This document shows positions 7,390-62,239 of a stretch of DNA of 64,000 nucleotides, one piece after another. The DNA comes from Thermoanaerobaculia bacterium (GTDB lineage: Bacteria > Acidobacteriota > Thermoanaerobaculia > UBA5066). The translations under genes and the position numbers were made by a program. The DNA is taken from assembly GCA_963821225.1 (NCBI GenBank), contig CAWGCY010000004.1:401595-465594 (forward strand). The letters run 5' to 3'. The notes under the pieces were generated by a model. It did not search any database. It was given only the letters and a program-made list of their open reading frames with translations, and was not told the origin of the DNA. Within the stretch, counting starts at the first letter, position 1. The number at the start of each line of letters is the position of its first letter.

Positions 7390-9539
7390 CCACGGTTCTC
7401 CACGGCCGGGACGCTTTCGAGCGCCTTCATGCCGGCCTCGGCGGCTTTGCGGGCGTCGCTTCCCGGCGCCGCGTTTCTCAGGATTTCCTCGTAGAGGCGA
7501 CGCGCGTCCGAGAGGCGACCCGCGGTTCCGTAGAGCGCCGCGAGGCCGAGACGCGCCTGGTCCGCCTGTGAGGACCCCGGGGCCTTGAGGAGGATCTCCT
7601 CGTAGAGCGTCGTCGCGCGGAGCGCGTTCTTGGCCTTGTCGGCGCCGCGCGCGAGCCGGAGGGTGGCCCTGACTCTCACGTCCGGGTCGCTTGCGCGCGC
7701 CGCTTCCTCGAACGAGCGCTCGGCGGCGTCGTCTTGCCCGAGCGTCTCGAGGACGTCGCCCTTCTTCAGCAAGGCCTCTCCGCGCGAGGCCGGGATCTCG
7801 ATCAGCGCCTCGAGGGCCTTGAGTGCGCGCGATTTGTCCTGCGTCTTGACGGCGAGGTCGGCGATCGTCGAAAGGAGGACGGCGCGCGACTCGGTCTGCG
7901 CCATCTTGGAGGCGGCATCCTCGTAGAACGTGAGGGCGGCAGGGACGCTCTCGCGTTCGAGGAGCGCCCCGCGCTCCAGGACGCGCTCGAGCGTGACGTC
8001 TCCTCCGGCCGGGCGGACGGGGGCGGCGGCGGCCGGCGCCGCCGCGGGAGCCGGCCGCCTCTCTCCCGAAGGGAGGCGCGGAGCCCGCTTCGCCCACCAG
8101 GCGCCGAGCCCGGCGAGCGCGGCGACGACGAGGGTCGCCGCGATCAGGCCGGTGCGGTTCGTCTCCTCGCGCGGGATGGAAGGGACCGTGCGCGGCGTCC
8201 CGCCCGCGGCGAGAGGCACGGCGCGCGTCGCGAATCCGGGTGTCGGCTCGCTGCTCGAAAGAAGCGAGGCGATCTGACCTTGCGTGTACGGGTCTGGCGG
8301 CGCGAGGGCCTGGAGCTTTCGGAAAAAGCGCATGAGGTTCAGGAAGTCGTGTTCGAGGCGGTAGAGCTTCGCGAGCTGCAGGAGGAGGGCGAGGTTGTCG
8401 GGATCCTTTTTCAGCGCCTCCTCGAGCTCGCGGATGCGCGCGTTGTCGAGCGGCTTCTCACGCTGCCCGGCGCGCACGGCCGCGGTGCGCAGGAGCGTCT
8501 GCGCGGCCGGGTCGTCCGGCGTGCAGGCGACCGTCCGGTACGCCGCCCAGAGCGCCTCCTCGGGGCGCGCGTTCGCGTCCTGAAGCAGGCGTTCGGCGGC
8601 AGCGGTGGACTCTTTGGCGAGCAGCCGATTGCGTTCGGCGACGAAGGCGGCGGGGTTCTCGAGGAACGTCCGGAAGTGGATTCCCGGCCGCGTAGAGCCC
8701 TCCTTCTGATAAAGCGTGTCCAGGGCATCGCACGCGGCGTTCGCGCTCGCGAAGCGACGAGAACGGTCCTTCGCATGGAGCTTTCTGAGAAACGTGTCGA
8801 CGGACGGAGGAATCGACGGATCTAGAAGAGACGGCAGGTCGGGCTCGGCGTCCGCGACGCGGCGGAGGGAGGACGCGATGGAGTCGGCCGTGAACGGGTT
8901 GTACCCGCAGAGGAGCTCGTAAAGGACGGTCCCCATCGAGAAGAGGTCGGTCCTCGGGTCCAGCTCCTCTCCCCGCGCCTGCTCGGGCGACATGTGCGCG
9001 GGCGTGCCCACAACGGTTCCCGTGTGCGTGAGGCGCGTGAGGTGCGCGGCATGGCTGATCCCGAAGTCGCCGATCTTCACGCACCCTTCGCGCGTCCACA
9101 TGATGTTCTGCGGCTTGATGTCGCGGTGAATGACGCCCTTCGCGTGAGCCGCGGCGAGCCCGGTGAGGGCCTCCCGGGTGACGAAGAGCGCGATCTCCCA
9201 CGGGAAGCGGCCGCACTGCTTCCGGAGACCGTTCAGCTCGCCGCCATCCACGTATTCCATGACGATGTACGCCTGTTCCGGCGTGGGGCTGCAGTCCACG
9301 AGCTCGACGATGTTCGGGTGCTTGAGGGAGATCTGGATCCGGATCTCGTGGAAGAAGCGGTCGAGGAAGTCGGGATCCGTGGCGATGTGCGGCAGGATCT
9401 TCTTGAGCGCGACCGTCCGGCCGGATTTCTCGTCAACGGCCTCGAAGATCTCCGCCATGCCGCCGAGCGCGATCCGACGCACGATCCGGTAGTGGTCGAT
9501 GCGCTCGAGAGGATGCGACGGACGCGACTCAGGGGACAT
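7386..9539 (-). CDS. Serine/threonine protein kinase with TM segment and C-terminal TPR repeats
   Basis: Hanks kinase subdomains: GGMAEIFEA...[28 protein letters not shown]. Followed by a hydrophobic segment and TPR-like repeats. Confidence 0.8.
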
Positions 9540-52167: not shown

Positions 52168-52538
52168 CTTCTCAAAATGGTGGAGGCGGGGGGAGTCGAA
52201 CCCCCGTCCGAAGCGCCCGAACGTCGAGATTCTCCACGCTCAGTCCGGACTTGTTTTTCTAGCCGCCGCGTCTTCAGGTCCGGACGACCGGGCGCGGCAG
52301 CGAACCTGAAACTCTCGGGACGCCTCTTCAGATGGCGGAGGCGGCCCCAGCCCGGATTTCGCGTCAAACGCCGAGGCGCCCCGGACAGGCTCCCCGGCGC
52401 CCGTCACGGCTAATTAGGCCGCGAGAGCGAGGTCGCTGTTGTTGGCAGCTGGTTGTTGACCGTCGTTTTTACGAGCGAACGGCCGTGCTCGGCGTGCTCC
52501 TCGATCGCTGAATGCCCCGTCGAAACCGGGACGCCCCC
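52168..52538 (-). ncRNA. ssrA: tmRNA (ssrA)
   Basis: On the minus strand. 5' GGGGGCGTCCCGGTTTCGACGGGG... pairs with 3' ...GGACGGGGGTTCGACTCCCCCCGCCTCCACCA (T-arm GGGGGTTCGACTCCCCC, acceptor plus CCA). Internal tag reading frame ...GCC AAC AAC AGC GAC CTC GCT CTC GCG GCC TAA encodes ANNSDLALAA-stop. Length ~370 nt. Confidence 0.8.
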
Positions 52539-57328: not shown

Positions 57329-57403
57329 CGGGGCGTGGCGCAGGGGTAGCGCACCTGCTTTGGGAGCAGGGGGTCGGCGGTTCGATCCCGCCCGCCCCGA
57401 CCA
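57329..57403 (+). tRNA. tRNA-Pro (anticodon UGG)
   Basis: Acceptor CGGGGCG/CGCCCCG (C1-G72, typical of bacterial tRNA-Pro), D-arm GCGC..GCGC, anticodon loop TTTGGGA (UGG, G37), T-arm GGCGG-TTCGATC-CCGCC, discriminator A, encoded CCA. Confidence 0.8.
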
Positions 57404-57440
57404 GAATTCGAAGTTCCTTGACGAGCGCCGGCGTGCCGCG

Positions 57441-58250
57441 ATGTGCCTGATCGTCCTCGCGTGGGAGGCGTCGCCGACGACGCGCCTCGTGGTCGCCGCC
57501 AACCGCGACGAGTTCTTCGCGCGCCGTGCCGCGCCGGCCGCGTGGTGGGCCGACGCGCCTGATGTTCTCGCGGGGCGCGACCTCGAGGCGGGCGGGACAT
57601 GGCTGGGAGTCACGCGAAAAGGCCGGTTCGCCGCGCTCACGAACTTCCGGGACGCGCTGGCCCCGAAGAAGGACGGCGCGCCCTCCCGGGGCGCGCTCGC
57701 CGCCGACTTCTTGCGGGGAGACGTCGCCGCGGCGGACTACGTCGCCGCGATCCAGCTCGGCGCGGACCGTTACCACGGCTTCAACCTCCTCGTCTCGGAC
57801 AGCGAAGAGCTGTGGTCCTTCTCGAACGTGGAGGGCGACCCGGTTCGCCTCGGCTCCGGCCTCCGGGGCCTCTCGAATCACCTTCTCGAAACGCCGTGGC
57901 CCAAAGTGACGGCGGCCCGCTCGCGCCTCGAGGCGGCACTCCGGGCCAGTCGCGGCGGGGAGGACCTCGAGCGCCGCCTGCTTCACCTGCTCGCGGATCG
58001 AACGACGGCGCCTGACGGCGCCCTCCCCGCGACGGGCCTGCTGCTGGACCGGGAGCGGGCCCTCTCGGCTGCGTTCGTCCAGCTCCCGGGCTACGGGACG
58101 CGGGCCTCGACCGCCCTCGTCGTCGGGACGGACGGCAGGGCGCGGTTCGACCGAGCGCACCTTCGGCGAGGACGGGACGCCGCTCGGCGACGTGCGCGAG
58201 GCGTTCGAGGTCCGCGCGACGCCACTTTAGTAGTGACTCTTCTACTGTGA
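57441..58250 (+). CDS. NRDE-family protein (TANGO2-like)
   Basis: MCLIVLAWEASPTTRLVVAANRDEFFARR...GGTWLG starts with the characteristic N-terminal Cys and the NRDE motif. Confidence 0.65.
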   Translation: MCLIVLAWEASPTTRLVVAANRDEFFARRAAPAAWWADAPDVLAGRDLEAGGTWLGVTRKGRFAALTNFRDALAPKKDGAPSRGALAADFLRGDVAAADYVAAIQLGADRYHGFNLLVSDSEELWSFSNVEGDPVRLGSGLRGLSNHLLETPWPKVTAARSRLEAALRASRGGEDLERRLLHLLADRTTAPDGALPATGLLLDRERALSAAFVQLPGYGTRASTALVVGTDGRARFDRAHLRRGRDAARRRARGVRGPRDATLVVTLLL

Positions 58251-58294
58251 ACGGGAGTGCTGTCGGCCTTTCGGGCCGCCGTTCCGAATGCGGC

Positions 58295-59089
58295 CTACTG
58301 TTTCACCGCCACATACTGGCTGCTGGTCCCGTGCAACTTGTCGTCCACCGTGATGGTCATGCTCTTGCCGTCAGCCGCCACTGTCATGCGTGCGACGCTG
58401 GTCACTTTTCCATCCCGCTTGTCGGTTTCCTCGATCGTGTTCTTGCCCACCTTCTTGAGCGACAGGCTGGTCGTGCCGGGGTCGCCCTTGTACGGCGCCT
58501 CCGTCCCATCCAGCTTTGCGGTATAGCCTTGTCCGGTCGGGGTGCTCATGCTCAAGGTATCGCCAACCACCTTGTTGGTGAACATCAGCCCGTTGTCCGA
58601 GACGGAATCCATCTTCGAGGTCAGCCAGGAACCCGAGATGGCGTGCGATCCTGCAGGACCCTTGGCCACTCGCGTCGATTCACCTTTGCCGGTGACCGGA
58701 GCGGCGTTGGAGGCGCTGCTGTCGGTGAATTCGAACGTCATCGTGTTTCCGTCGGCCGAGACCCAGGTTTTCGAAGTCGCGACGGTTTTTCCATTCTTCT
58801 TGTGGGTTTCCTCGATCGTGCGAGCGTCGACTACCTTGATGCTCACCATGTCGTAGTACGGATGCCCTGACACCTTCTGGTCCTTCCCATCCGCCTTGAC
58901 CTCGATCGGGGGAACGCACGTCTTGCAGTGGTACATCCCGTCCTGCAACAGGTAGACATCGGGCTTCGTCGGGAATTTCGCCGACTTCAAGTCCACCTTC
59001 CACGTCCCGTCGAAAGCACTTTGCGCCATTGCCATCGCGGGCATCAACAGTGAAGCGATCAAGACGAACCAGCGAGTCGTTTTCATCAC
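58295..59089 (-). CDS. Secreted protein of unknown function with two tandem beta-rich (lipocalin/calycin-like?) domains, encoded in a lower-GC tract
   Basis: Signal peptide MMKTTRWFVLIASLLMPAMAMA. Two related halves (DGTWKVDL...TIEETHKKNGKTVATSKTW... and SGSWLTSK...TIEETDKRDGKVTSVARMT...). Lys/Thr/Asp-rich. Local GC ~58% against ~70% genome-wide. Confidence 0.5.
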   Translation of the reverse strand: MMKTTRWFVLIASLLMPAMAMAQSAFDGTWKVDLKSAKFPTKPDVYLLQDGMYHCKTCVPPIEVKADGKDQKVSGHPYYDMVSIKVVDARTIEETHKKNGKTVATSKTWVSADGNTMTFEFTDSSASNAAPVTGKGESTRVAKGPAGSHAISGSWLTSKMDSVSDNGLMFTNKVVGDTLSMSTPTGQGYTAKLDGTEAPYKGDPGTTSLSLKKVGKNTIEETDKRDGKVTSVARMTVAADGKSMTITVDDKLHGTSSQYVAVKQ

Positions 59090-59173
59090 TCGTCCTCCAT
59101 CTAGGGTGTGGCCCCAATTTCCGATTTCAACTTCATCTGCCCAAATTCCCGAGGGGCGGGCGGCACCGAGGTC

Positions 59174-59635
59174 TTACGGCATCGGCTTGAGATTGACCTC
59201 GCGGAGATAACGCGTTCCGACGGCATCGCGCATGGCGAAGCGCGGGGAGATCATCTCCTGCTGCTTGGTTTCGTCCTTCGTCTTGAACTGCTTCTCGGCG
59301 ATGGCTTTTCTCTTGTCGTCGTCCCCCTGGTTGAAGTCCAGGGCCTTGCCGAAGCTGGGGTAGAGCGTCGCGATCGCGATGTCCCAGTCTTTTTCGTCAC
59401 GCGGGGTGTTGAGGAGGAACTTCGTGTCGAGGATGAGGCCCTGCTTTTTCGCCTCGCCCGCGGAAACGAGGTAGGTCGAGCGCAGGTACTTCATGTAGTC
59501 GTCGAACTTGCCGGGCTTCGTCCGGATGTAGTTGACCGCCCAGACGGGTCCTTCGGTGAAGTGCTCCTGCGCGAGCGCCGGCAGTCCGGTCAGACACGCG
59601 CCGAGAAAAAGAGCGATGAGGGTGAGACGTTTCAT
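59174..59635 (-). CDS. Secreted hypothetical protein (lower-GC tract)
   Basis: Signal peptide MKRLTLIALFLGACLTGLPALA. 153 aa, Lys/Asp-rich. No known motif recognised. Confidence 0.45.
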   Translation of the reverse strand: MKRLTLIALFLGACLTGLPALAQEHFTEGPVWAVNYIRTKPGKFDDYMKYLRSTYLVSAGEAKKQGLILDTKFLLNTPRDEKDWDIAIATLYPSFGKALDFNQGDDDKRKAIAEKQFKTKDETKQQEMISPRFAMRDAVGTRYLREVNLKPMP

Positions 59636-59800
59636 TGAGCCTCCTATGGCTGCGGTTGGTGGGAAAGTCGCTTCGATCCGCGGTCTGCGACGGACAGGCA
59701 GGAGCGGCGACGCTCCCGGCCCGGGCTTGACGATCCCTTGGAAAGTTCGCGGATTCTTCGTCCCGGCCGGCCTTCTGTCAAGCGAGAGGGACCGGGACCG

Positions 59801-60601
59801 TCAGGGCACGAGAGCGAGCGGATGGCGGCCCCCGGTCACCTCCCGGATCGCCGGTCCCGTGACGGAGACGTCGTCGGAGATGACGCTCGCGACGCCCTGG
59901 CGCGCGAGGTGCGCGGCGAGCGAGGGATCGTTCACCGTCCAGACGTGGACCGAAACGCCCTCGGCTTTCGCGCGCGCGAAGAGCGCGTCCGAGACGAGCA
60001 TCACGTTCGGACCGATCGCGGAGCAGCCTTTGGGGAGGTCGGGCCAGAGCCGTCCTTCGGGCCGGTGCGCCATGCCGTCGAAGTTGAGGCACGTCGCGAC
60101 CCTGGGCTCGATCTCCCGGATTCGGCGGAGCGCGTCGGGCGAGAAGGAAAGAACGACCGCTCGTTCGAGGAGCGAGAGCTGCGCGAGGAGAGCAGCGACC
60201 CGGAACTCGAGCAGGGAGGGGCGCGGCGAAGGTCCCGGCTTCAGCTCGACGAGGTAGCGTCCCTGGGAGCCGTACCTGAGGAAGACGTCGCGCAGTGTCG
60301 GGACGAAACCCCGGAGCTCCCCGCGCACGACCGGGGTCTCGTTGAGCTCGGGAATCGTGAGGGTTGCGAGCGGGACCCGGCGGCCCGGGAGGACGATTTC
60401 GGCGTCGTGGTGCACGACGGCCTCGCCGTCCAGCGTGAGCCGCACGTCGAGCTCGAAGGCGTCGGCGCCGTCCGCCTCGGCGCGGTCGAAGCTCTCGAAC
60501 GTGTTTTCGAGAGCCTTCGTCGGGGAGCCTCGGTGCCCGACGACGCGCGTGGGAGAAGCTTCGAAGAAGTTCATGCTGGCTGGATTATCCTCGCGGGACA
60601 T
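59801..60601 (-). CDS. Glycerophosphodiester phosphodiesterase (GDPD family)
   Basis: VVGHRGSPTKALENTFESF ... ELDVRLTLDGEAVVHHD matches the GDPD catalytic motifs. The alternative internal start MNFFEAS (60574) is probably the real one. Confidence 0.8.
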   Translation of the reverse strand: MSREDNPASMNFFEASPTRVVGHRGSPTKALENTFESFDRAEADGADAFELDVRLTLDGEAVVHHDAEIVLPGRRVPLATLTIPELNETPVVRGELRGFVPTLRDVFLRYGSQGRYLVELKPGPSPRPSLLEFRVAALLAQLSLLERAVVLSFSPDALRRIREIEPRVATCLNFDGMAHRPEGRLWPDLPKGCSAIGPNVMLVSDALFARAKAEGVSVHVWTVNDPSLAAHLARQGVASVISDDVSVTGPAIREVTGGRHPLALVP

Positions 60602-61613
60602 GTCGCGATCCGCACGCCCGCGGCCGGAGGGCGCCGTGCGCCGCCGGCGCGCGGTGCAGCCTCTCTCCGAAGGGCCGTTCTCCGTGCCGCTGTCGACGAT
60701 CGATTGGCTCGTCTCGCGCGAGAGCCCGGCGGCTCGCTACGTGGCCCTTCGAGACCTCCTCGGCCGCCCCCCGAAAGATCCCGACCTGAAGAGGGCGAAA
60801 CAGGGATTCCACCGGGAGCCGTTCGTGCGCGAGACGCTCGCGCTGCTGCGCGCGAAGCTCGCCCCCGGCGCGGGAGCGTCGGCACTCGAGCGCCGTTACG
60901 ACGGGGGGGTGTGGCTCGCGCTCTTCCTGACGGAGGTTGGGGCGGACGGCTCGCTGCTTCAGCTTCACCACGCGGGCGACGTCCTCCTCGCCCGCTGGGA
61001 AAAGGCGCTCGTAAAGATCGAGCGGCACGAGGAGGCCGACCTCGACGCCGCGCTGTTTCGGGCGGCCCTCCGCGTCCTTTCGCGGATCGGGTGGGAACGC
61101 GATGCGCGGGTCCGCGAGGGCGCTGACGCGCTCGCGGCGCGCGCGCTCGCAGGGCGCGGCCAGACGGAAAAAGACCTTCTGCTCTTCGCGTCGCTGCCCG
61201 AGGGCGCGAGAAGCGAGCGCGTCTCGAGGGCCATATCCTTCCTCTCGGCCCGGCTCCTCGAGGTCGAGCTACCGGCTGCGCTCGCCCCCGGCGCGCCGGA
61301 GGAGCTGCTCATGCCCGGCTTCCCGTGCGGCGACGAGACCGATCTCGTCGAGATGCTGTTCGCGCTCGCCTTGGTGCTCCCCGCCGAGTCCCGGCGAGAG
61401 CCGGTCCTCTGCCGAGCCCTCGCGCGCCTCGTCACGCGCGCCGACCATCGCGCGCGCTGGACGCTCGAACGGCCGCGGCCCGAGCGGCTTCCCGTCGCCC
61501 TCGAGCGCACGGGCGAGCTCTCGCGGTGGGTCACGCTCCGCGCGCTCGCCGCCCTGCAGCACTTCCACGGCCTCGAGGTGCCGGGCGCGCCTCCCCCGAG
61601 GAGGCGCCCGTGA
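60600..61613 (+). CDS. Hypothetical protein (alpha-helical, Arg/Leu/Ala-rich)
   Basis: 337-aa ORF with coding-like periodicity. No recognisable motifs. Start codon uncertain (see finding on overlapping divergent starts). Confidence 0.4.
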   Translation: MSRSARPRPEGAVRRRRAVQPLSEGPFSVPLSTIDWLVSRESPAARYVALRDLLGRPPKDPDLKRAKQGFHREPFVRETLALLRAKLAPGAGASALERRYDGGVWLALFLTEVGADGSLLQLHHAGDVLLARWEKALVKIERHEEADLDAALFRAALRVLSRIGWERDARVREGADALAARALAGRGQTEKDLLLFASLPEGARSERVSRAISFLSARLLEVELPAALAPGAPEELLMPGFPCGDETDLVEMLFALALVLPAESRREPVLCRALARLVTRADHRARWTLERPRPERLPVALERTGELSRWVTLRALAALQHFHGLEVPGAPPPRRRP

Positions 61614-62239
61614 AACGGCGCCCGACGTTTCTGCTCGGAGTCCTCCTGGCGCTCCTTCCGGGGTGCGCCGCCGATCCCTTCGGCGCGCCCACACGCGTGA
61701 AGACGCACGGCTATCGCGCGCGCGTGACGCTCAGGAGCGACGGAGTCGAGAAGGCGGCGTTCGACCTCGCCGTGTTCCGGGACCTCAGGCGCAAGGGGCC
61801 GGCGGACGGCCCGGCGCTCGTTCTCGACGTGGCGGCCCGCAAGGCGTTCCGGCTCGATCCGGTCGCGAAGACGGCCCGGGACGTTCCCTACTCGGAGGCG
61901 GTGGGCGAGCTTCCCGGCGGAATCCCGCTCGCCCCGGGCTTCGACGAAAAGGAGGAAGCGGCGCGGCGAAACGTCAGCATCTACCATCGCGAAGGCGACG
62001 AGGTCTTCGCGGGGCACGCTTGCGGCCTCTGGCGCTTCGACGACGATCCCGCCGTGCCGGGCTCCCCGACGACGACCTACTGGGTGGCCGCAGATCTGGA
62101 CGGCCTCGTGACGCGTTACGACCGCGAAACGACCGACGCGAACGGAAGGACGCGGAAATCTACAGTGACCCTCACGAACGTCCGGGTGGGAGCGGATCCC
62201 GGCCTCTTTTCGGTTCCGGCCGGCTGGACCCGGCTCTGA
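61610..62239 (+). CDS. Lipoprotein, unknown function
   Basis: The GTG start overlaps the upstream stop (GTGA). Lipobox LLPGC. About 209 aa, beta-rich. Confidence 0.5.
   Translation: MKRRPTFLLGVLLALLPGCAADPFGAPTRVKTHGYRARVTLRSDGVEKAAFDLAVFRDLRRKGPADGPALVLDVAARKAFRLDPVAKTARDVPYSEAVGELPGGIPLAPGFDEKEEAARRNVSIYHREGDEVFAGHACGLWRFDDDPAVPGSPTTTYWVAADLDGLVTRYDRETTDANGRTRKSTVTLTNVRVGADPGLFSVPAGWTRL

Follow-up and report, generated by a model that had tools for sequence, protein, structure and literature searches.

Calycin barrels typically enclose hydrophobic ligands, and their superfamily includes the intracellular lipid-binding proteins (iLBPs), among them the fatty-acid-binding proteins (FABPs), the cellular retinol- and retinoic-acid-binding proteins (CRBP and CRABP) and the bile-acid-binding proteins. 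FABPs have been described as cytosolic animal proteins, and VtrC, part of the VtrA/VtrC bile-salt receptor, as a periplasmic calycin of a Gram-negative bacterium whose inner chamber accommodates a hydrophobic ligand (PMC4933562). For bacterial FABP-like proteins, Rv0813c among them, a role in recognising, transporting or storing small molecules has been proposed (PMC11133741). Here we analyse two neighbouring genes for exported barrel proteins, A and B, in a 64,000-nucleotide stretch of DNA from a Thermoanaerobaculia bacterium (GenBank assembly GCA_963821225.1, contig CAWGCY010000004.1, positions 401,595 to 465,594; hereafter the window), where they lie beside a tRNA-Pro(UGG) gene in a region of low guanine-plus-cytosine content (GC).

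The other obvious comparison is with tRNA-linked genomic islands, which A resembles in its place at a tRNA 3' flank, its presence or absence in close relatives and its phylogenetically foreign character. It differs from them in that the insert would be a single gene of 0.87 kb, carrying nothing else and lacking both an integrase and a direct repeat of the tRNA 3' end. On the reading that we consider likely overall, B is native, A is an import of Terriglobia type, the GC dip is mainly a matter of protein composition, B and A share one transcript, and both proteins have the binding functions that their folds suggest.

Locus comparison and the origin of gene A

The genes compared across related genomes, with the putative insert, are as follows (window coordinates).

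57329..57403, plus strand: tRNA-Pro(UGG) gene (ARAGORN; Rfam RF00005, 63 bits), its 3' end towards the variable flank
57441..58250, plus strand: TANGO2/NRDE-family gene, 269 aa (PF05742, E 2.6e-63; true start ATG 57441)
58280..59150, minus strand: putative inserted segment of ~0.87 kb, comprising part of a donor-type leader, gene A and ~15 nt of 3' flank
58295..59086, minus strand: gene A, exported protein of 263 aa (264 from a GTG at 59089) with two FABP-like beta-barrels
59087..59173, minus strand: B-A spacer of 87 nt, with 22 nt of backbone followed by the presumed imported leader and its Shine-Dalgarno (SD) sequence
59174..59635, minus strand: gene B, encoding a 153-aa exported protein of dimeric alpha+beta-barrel (ferredoxin-like) fold, read as a native backbone gene
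59801..60601, minus strand: GDPD (glycerophosphodiester phosphodiesterase), a backbone gene upstream of B (PF03009, E 4.9e-32)

Three relatives, L001, L004 and L031 (the last a metagenome-assembled genome, or MAG, labelled Thermoanaerobaculia), keep the order amidase, Germane, murI, RNase PH, hydrolase, tRNA-Pro, TANGO2 (present or not), A, B, GDPD, orf423 and orf304, with proteins 84-97% identical to those of the window. On these three syntenic relatives A and B both appeared to be fixed at the locus, a reading overturned by contigs with B homologues of intermediate identity. The window, L001, L004 and L031 contain A, whereas L117, L118 and L119 do not, and in none of these last three did tblastn find a match to it. 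L119 runs from GDPD to B and reaches tRNA-Pro 34 bp past the B stop, with flanking proteins 85-93% identical to those of the window; L118 has GDPD, B, TANGO2 and tRNA-Pro in that order (flanking proteins 81-91% identical), and L117 is the same over its extent. B, by comparison, lies between GDPD and the tRNA flank in six of the six related loci that span this interval, being partial at the contig end of L004. Elsewhere in these loci, tRNA-Pro(UGG) occupies the equivalent place in L001, L004, L031, L118 and L119, and GDPD is syntenic in L001, L031, L117, L118 and L119.

TANGO2 is present in the window, L004, L117 and L118 and absent from L001, L031 and L119, so that the 3' flank of tRNA-Pro exists in five states: B-tRNA, B-TANGO2-tRNA, B-A-tRNA, B-A-TANGO2-tRNA (the window) and the L004 type, in which a small open reading frame (ORF) stands between A and TANGO2. 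A and TANGO2 vary independently, B is never missing, and the flank is a small hotspot of insertions and deletions. The A stop codon is 24 bp from the tRNA 3' end in L001 and 61 bp in L031, the window having TANGO2 between the two, and the window's tRNA-Pro(UGG) itself is intact and without duplication. The small ORF of L004 is on the reverse strand, within ~400 bp of extra sequence (L004:1090-1560) found neither in the window nor in the other relatives. The spacer between GDPD and B also varies in length, from 165 nt in the window and 73 nt in L119 to a 4-bp overlap in L117 and L118.

In a backbone tree of six genomes including the window (2,487 aligned positions), the A-less L118 is the outgroup at distances of 0.15-0.17, and the other five form a near-star at 0.08-0.10. 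The simplest history is a single gain of A within the ingroup. A scan with patterns derived from the window's A, taking one genome per species, gave 29 loci, of which 24 are labelled Terriglobia or a taxon within it (GC 0.54-0.65); the others include two more low-GC Acidobacteriota, two of the syntenic high-GC type (L004 and L031) and two Gammaproteobacteria, with a homologue 67% identical to A in Rhodanobacter sp. KK11 (Gammaproteobacteria). We built a neighbour-joining tree of A, rooted with distant representatives and bootstrapped 300 times. The high-GC copies (window, L001, L004 and L002) were monophyletic in 87% of replicates, with the copy of L003, a contig of 57% GC, as their sister in 72%. 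This high-GC clade was nested inside the Terriglobia copies in 99%, and Terriglobia were monophyletic without it in 0%. Thermoanaerobaculia and Terriglobia are separate classes. The DNA distance of A to the L003 copy is 0.13-0.18, compared with 0.07-0.09 among the syntenic copies.

The non-coding sequence on both sides of A gives the extent of the putative insert. The 22 nt past the B stop (59173-59152) are homologous to the empty site of L119; past 59152, the leader core of the A carriers, AAATCGGAAATTCC...ATGGAGGA, matches L003 downstream of its -10 box, and the 13-15 nt that follow the A stop (GCCGCCTTCGCGA) match L003 as well. From these breaks and matches, we infer an insert of ~0.87 kb at ~58280-59150, with boundaries accurate to ~+/- 15 nt, that would have arrived without the donor promoter. 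Its two junctions have only a short, uninterpretable CGCCCC in common, and the B stop codon aligns with the position of the -35 box in donor-type (Terriglobia) loci.

Terriglobia homologues of A have a conserved sigma70-type promoter (TTGCAC-17-TACATT/TATATT), a ~70-nt leader and the SD sequence GGAGGA, all within ~100 nt upstream of the gene (L012, L013, L014, L016, L018-L020, L022-L025 and L027), and this promoter and leader are kept although the flanking genes differ between genomes. The conserved 100 nt read as a sigma70-type promoter plus untranslated region, and the Terriglobia homologue would behave like a self-contained single-gene cassette. A riboswitch or structured RNA in this conserved stretch was considered and set aside: Rfam gave no match, compensatory pairs numbered 0 and the consensus energy was -4.8 kcal/mol. 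A second high-GC copy, 86% identical, stands at L002:6001-6792 (ENA ERZ25039488 contig_23124, GC 0.68), just after RND efflux and outer-membrane-factor genes and with a promoter of its own (TTGACG-17-TACGGT). L002 comes from the same sample as L001, and the copy may be a paralogue within the same genome or the product of another insertion, in a related genome.

Consensus scans pointed to the following site upstream of B, on the strand of A and B, and to a further one between the convergent genes.

59753..59781, minus strand: promoter-like site TTGACA-17-AAGAAT, ~118 nt upstream of B (consensus scan)
58278..58294: GC-rich short hairpin where the 3' ends of TANGO2 and A converge, terminator-like on the plus strand

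The promoter-like site agrees with the consensus at 10 of 12 positions (2 sites, against 0.3 +/- 0.7 in shuffled sequence), and the scans found no promoter-like or terminator-like site on the A/B strand within the 87-nt B-A spacer. Since one such promoter-like site lies upstream of B and the spacer is free of such sites, we predict that B and A are likely read as a bicistron, B then A, from the site just after GDPD; both genes have strong SD sequences. The hairpin, with a 5-bp stem and a T-rich tail, is a weak terminator-like site.

In outline, then, the locus would hold two unrelated genes for Sec-exported periplasmic proteins, probably on one B-then-A transcript. B would be a native gene of this Thermoanaerobaculia lineage, as its host-like codons, its presence in all six related loci and its mostly Thermoanaerobaculia named homologues indicate. 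A would be an accessory insertion of ~0.87 kb that arrived without a promoter of its own from a Terriglobia-type donor of roughly 57% GC and settled in the interval from B to the tRNA-Pro(UGG) 3' end, and whose third codon positions may since have drifted most of the way to host usage.

Base composition and codon usage

The original prediction had described an islet of visibly lower GC and AT-rich codon choice, placed after tRNA-Pro and the NRDE gene and before GDPD, and had taken atypical composition next to a tRNA as a sign of horizontal acquisition. The placement is confirmed by ARAGORN, PF05742 and PF03009, and the dip is real: the stretch 58250-59640 has a GC of 0.595 compared with 0.692 for the whole window and is its lowest 1.39-kb stretch (z = -3.5; equally low sliding windows, 0.13%). 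The TANGO2/NRDE gene, at a GC of 0.73, lies outside it. The codon choice, conversely, is not AT-rich. GC at third codon positions (GC3) is 0.81 in A and 0.85 in B, near the 0.84-0.87 of their neighbours, and the shortfall is at positions 1 and 2 (0.49/0.46 in A, 0.57/0.38 in B).

From the protein encoded by each gene and the synonymous codon usage of the window, we calculated the GC to be expected, with the 38 other genes of this one 64-kb window as reference (mean GC 0.694). The expected and observed values were 0.608 and 0.605 for B and 0.616 and 0.587 for A, so that amino-acid composition accounts for ~97% of the deficit in B and ~73% in A. Both proteins contain 10.5% lysine, compared with 3.3% in the reference, with threonine, aspartate and serine also raised and alanine, arginine and leucine lowered, a composition that leads to lower GC at codon positions 1 and 2. 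The codon usage of B is typical (codon adaptation index, CAI, z +0.45). That of A is mildly low, with the lowest CAI of the 40 window genes (z -2.9), a GC residual beyond composition (z -2.7) and a GC at synonymous third positions (GC3s) of 0.794, compared with 0.865 +/- 0.035 (z -2.05).

The same pattern is found across 32 hosts of A with a GC of 54-70%, a comparison that used only values for gene A and set aside the frameshifted L031 copy. GC1 (0.49-0.57) and GC2 (0.40-0.48) are nearly constant, and GC3 spans 0.58-0.94 and climbs with host GC; gene A appears as an islet in high-GC hosts only. The dip is mostly protein composition, not foreign codon usage. Low GC is thus a poor argument for import, the more so as B is equally GC-poor yet native with host-like codons. 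The acquisition that had been proposed for both genes is supported for A only, and on evidence other than GC, namely the empty sites in relatives, the nesting of its gene tree and the shared non-coding flanks. It falls away for B, which has orthologues at the same place in every related locus, as A does not. More generally, a GC dip by a tRNA in a 70%-GC genome resembled a textbook island and proved to be mostly protein composition, and of the two genes one was native; composition can be told from import by checking GC3 and expected GC and by comparing empty sites.

Folds and candidate functions of the exported proteins

A and B were both correctly foreseen as signal-peptide proteins encoded on the minus strand, and A as an internal duplication carrying the motif TIEET(H/D)K(K/R)(N/D)GK. 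The parts of A are as follows.

59024..59086, minus strand: signal peptide of A (MKTTRWFVLIASLLMPAMAMA, cleaved before QS)
58652..59023, minus strand: barrel 1 of A, residues 23-146 of the 264-aa ORF, with ten strands and no helix in the AlphaFold2 (AF2) model
58298..58651, minus strand: barrel 2 of A, residues 147-264, with ten strands and one 4-residue helix in the AF2 model

The signal peptide is of the Sec type with a signal peptidase I (SPase I) site, A-x-A/Q, that is conserved in homologues: all 31 of the 31 intact ones have a positive N-region, a hydrophobic core and the sequence A-x-A/Q(S/N)xFDGTWK. The AF2 model of A also has an N-terminal helix, of lower confidence. The halves of A align with an E-value of 5e-11 and 39% identity over 59 aa. 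Their motifs, TIEETHKKNGK (residues 91-101, 58787-58819) and TIEETDKRDGK (residues 218-228, 58406-58438), form hairpins in barrels 1 and 2 respectively, and beneath them lies a 34-nt DNA repeat (D1) with 88% identity and 381-nt spacing. The calycin-type N-terminal G-x-W is invariant in both barrels (G28-x-W30 and G153-x-W155) in 74 A sequences, as is G195 of barrel 2, while C55-x-x-C58 (58916-58927) and R140 of barrel 1 are near-invariant. We predict that the two cysteines probably form a disulfide near the barrel mouth. A zinc-knuckle reading of the same CxxC was rejected, having given non-significant matches only (E 0.39-1.7).

In the AF2 model, each half of A forms the 10-stranded antiparallel beta-barrel that defines the iLBP/FABP family, without the helix-turn-helix lid between strands A and B. 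Structural matches each align ~100-120 residues, and in Foldseek no solved chain spanned the two barrels at once (query TM 0.30 or less), so that two exported lid-less FABP-like barrels are an architecture matched whole by no solved structure. By sequence, A has no Pfam, NCBIfam, PADLOC or PHROGs match and no significant match in the PDB, and 2 of 74 family members give weak Lipocalin_4 matches (E 0.016). The AFDGTWKVD at the mature N-terminus is also found at that of intestinal FABP. Membership of the FABP family at the sequence level was tried and not accepted, since profile searches against PDB FABPs gave E-values of at least 0.88, those with domain profiles above 1, and covered only the N-terminal FDGTWK motif; A has the fold of the iLBP family without demonstrated membership by sequence.

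A thus differs from the iLBPs in having no lid, two barrels per chain, Sec export, a bacterial host and the extra near-invariant CxxC pair, and in matching neither Pfam nor PDB FABPs significantly by sequence or profile. Rv0813c-type FABP-like proteins and nitrobindin-type barrels (Rv2717c and the C-terminal domain of THAP4) are single-domain and described as cytosolic, whereas A is tandem and exported, and A resembles these structures less than it does animal iLBPs (sequence identity 7-12%). VtrC, which is not among the top structural matches listed for A, is an open 8-stranded barrel completed by a strand of its partner, membrane-anchored and coupled to signalling; A would be a soluble tandem of closed 10-stranded barrels.

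The A family falls into 6,098 clusters at 90% identity, counting matches with E up to 1e-3, and into 2,008 at 50% identity, of which 356 reach E 1e-30 or better, with nearly all members ~260 aa long; the top 120 clusters are all at least 74% identical. It is a sizeable, strongly conserved and uncurated family, a tandem exported variant of the FABP-like fold, that is common in soil Acidobacteriota, also occurs in Gammaproteobacteria and has evidently been exchanged between classes. The few named matches to A, like those to B, are mostly Acidobacteriota. In the long-read MAG L031, the copies of A and B (7450-8793) have frameshifts, one of them a +1 shift around codon 124 of A; these may reflect assembly errors or pseudogenes.

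B likewise has a Sec/SPase I signal peptide, with the A-x-A/Q site kept in homologues and a mature start QEH[WFY]TEGPVW. An LGAC lipobox-like motif had suggested a lipoprotein; this was rejected, as Cys14 is not conserved and the A-x-A/Q site is. The monomer model of B contains the ferredoxin-like beta-alpha-beta unit, and B shares the fold of the DABB superfamily (ABM monooxygenases, NIPSNAP, EthD, stress-responsive Dabb and IsdG/MhuD) at 5-14% identity to the matches, adding a signal peptide and a longer helical insert (~130 residues mature). Comparison with the DABB matches gave no assignable catalytic residues. B has no Pfam, NCBIfam, PADLOC or PHROGs match and no significant PDB sequence match, and 47 family members gave only scattered single weak matches to curated models (ABM, NIPSNAP, EthD and Dabb tested). 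The family has 460 clusters, and most of its named members, which are 59-82% identical to B, come from Thermoanaerobaculia. An 82%-identical homologue occurs in another conserved context in L115, L116 and L034 (Thermoanaerobaculia MAG GCA_049581965.1 and similar contigs), in the order TonB-dependent receptor, sortilin-like protein, B, patatin, DJ-1/PfpI and ABC/MacB efflux genes.

A plain Sec/SPase I signal places a protein of a diderm in the periplasm by default. Given its modelled fold, A may bind or carry one or two hydrophobic small molecules in the periplasm, a carrier role having, in our judgement, somewhat less than an even chance. Candidate ligands would be a lipid, a fatty acid, an isoprenoid or a tetrapyrrole-like compound, which A might carry or sequester. 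B, similarly, may be a small-molecule-binding protein or one of the cofactor-independent enzyme type. A and B occur apart elsewhere and are not a conserved pair, and no neighbour gene of A is conserved across the 29 genomes, where the sole recurrent cluster is an antisense shadow ORF; their pairing here would thus be a by-product of the insertion site of A. In L021 (6593-7810, an Acidobacteriota MAG), an A homologue directly follows the gene of a two-domain multicopper oxidase, with that of an ArsM-like methyltransferase close by. A functional link between the oxidase and A was not accepted, the arrangement being found in L021 only.

A bolder reading, which we regard as quite unlikely, would make the A family a true bacterial relative of animal FABPs, a tandem, lid-less, Sec-exported periplasmic lipid carrier travelling as a single-gene cassette. 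It would have kept the AFDGTWK start and the last-strand arginine and would traffic, for example, a hopanoid, fatty acid or other lipid between the membranes, which is as doubtful as the relationship itself. Equally speculative is the further proposal that the cassette moves with its own strong promoter between classes and phyla of soil bacteria. The finding opens no long-standing question and the function of A is one that we infer; A is nevertheless a reasonable target in the search for a periplasmic carrier of lipids or small molecules in abundant, poorly studied soil bacteria.

Competing explanations and the surrounding locus

Because the GC dip spans both A and B on the 3' side of the tRNA, the whole 1.4-kb stretch might be one recent islet integrated at tRNA-Pro. 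The B-A block is moreover slightly more similar among A carriers (91.5-96% nucleotide identity) than the backbone is (86-94%), and L119 has a divergent allele of B (81%, compared with ~90% for its backbone), both of which would fit a B-plus-A haplotype spread by recombination; the two observations suggest two recombining haplotypes. A joint arrival is nonetheless very unlikely. B occupies its place in the A-less loci too, and in L118 its start overlaps the GDPD stop; its codon usage is host-like, its GC is fully explained by amino-acid composition, and its named homologues point to Thermoanaerobaculia. There is neither an integrase nor an attachment-site (att) repeat, and the homology break with the empty site falls after B, not before it. 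The opposite account dispenses with transfer altogether: A would be ancestral and deleted in some relatives, its low GC a product of composition and its nesting an artefact of conservation. This is in keeping with the large share of A's GC deficit that composition covers, with the strong conservation seen in the top 120 clusters and with the lack of mobility genes at the locus, and the A-less L119 within the near-star of A carriers makes at least one loss or replacement plausible. We consider it unlikely, since the backbone outgroup L118 has no A, the nesting of A within Terriglobia is supported by nearly all replicates, and A shares its non-coding leader and 3' flank with a 57%-GC contig, a match that constraint at the protein level cannot explain. 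In addition, the CAI of A is the lowest in the window, and within the lineage A diverges like its neighbours (91.5-94% nucleotide identity, compared with 86-94%) yet is 70-85% identical at the protein level to copies in another class; as a rough calibration, the best 80 of the 591 RNase PH relatives from a metagenome scan, among which no neighbourhood is shared, are only 53-67% identical.

A third account follows the original prediction in casting A and B as secreted adhesins or effectors of inter-bacterial interaction. The proteins are exported, small, patchily distributed and without an assigned function, and A is accessory, all of which such a role would accommodate. Their FABP-like and dimeric alpha+beta barrels are, however, folds of small-molecule-binding types, and their plain signal peptides would leave them in the periplasm. 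No toxin, immunity, type VI or type I secretion-system or contact-dependent inhibition gene, no adhesin repeat and no defence-family match was found nearby, and no neighbour of A recurs across the 29 genomes. We therefore regard this account as extremely improbable.

Several points besides the divergent B allele of L119 weigh against the reading that we prefer, with B native and A imported. The A-less L119 groups with the A-carrying L004 on the backbone (70% support); either L119 split off before the gain of A, or it lost A once through a clean replacement, or the history is obscured by recombination. All trees were built by neighbour joining only, with taxon labels taken from MAG records. Two other window genes share the low GC3s of A (0.79), which makes codon lag by itself a weak argument. 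No integrase, transposase or other mobility gene lies between the hydrolase and GDPD, no direct-repeat family pairs the tRNA with the far end of A or B in the manner of att sites, and PHROGs and PADLOC gave nothing for A, B, TANGO2 or three downstream ORFs. Co-transcription of B and A is read from consensus scans only, and ligand binding by A from its fold only, the sequence similarity to FABPs being non-significant. The import of A into a locus where B is native remains for us the likely account, and the evolutionary event behind it is an ordinary one.

Further from the two genes, a transfer-messenger RNA gene lies at 52178-52538 on the minus strand, with the tag peptide ANNSDLALAA. Its position is kept in related loci, and the tag is ANTSDLALAA in L004 and L118. 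On the other side, ORFs of 423 and 304 aa (60342-61613 and 61325-62239, plus strand; orf423 and orf304 above) overlap GDPD and one another and are probably over-extended, their counterparts in relatives being called as 325 and 209 aa. They have no Pfam, NCBIfam, PADLOC or PHROGs match and are conserved within the lineage at 75-91% identity.

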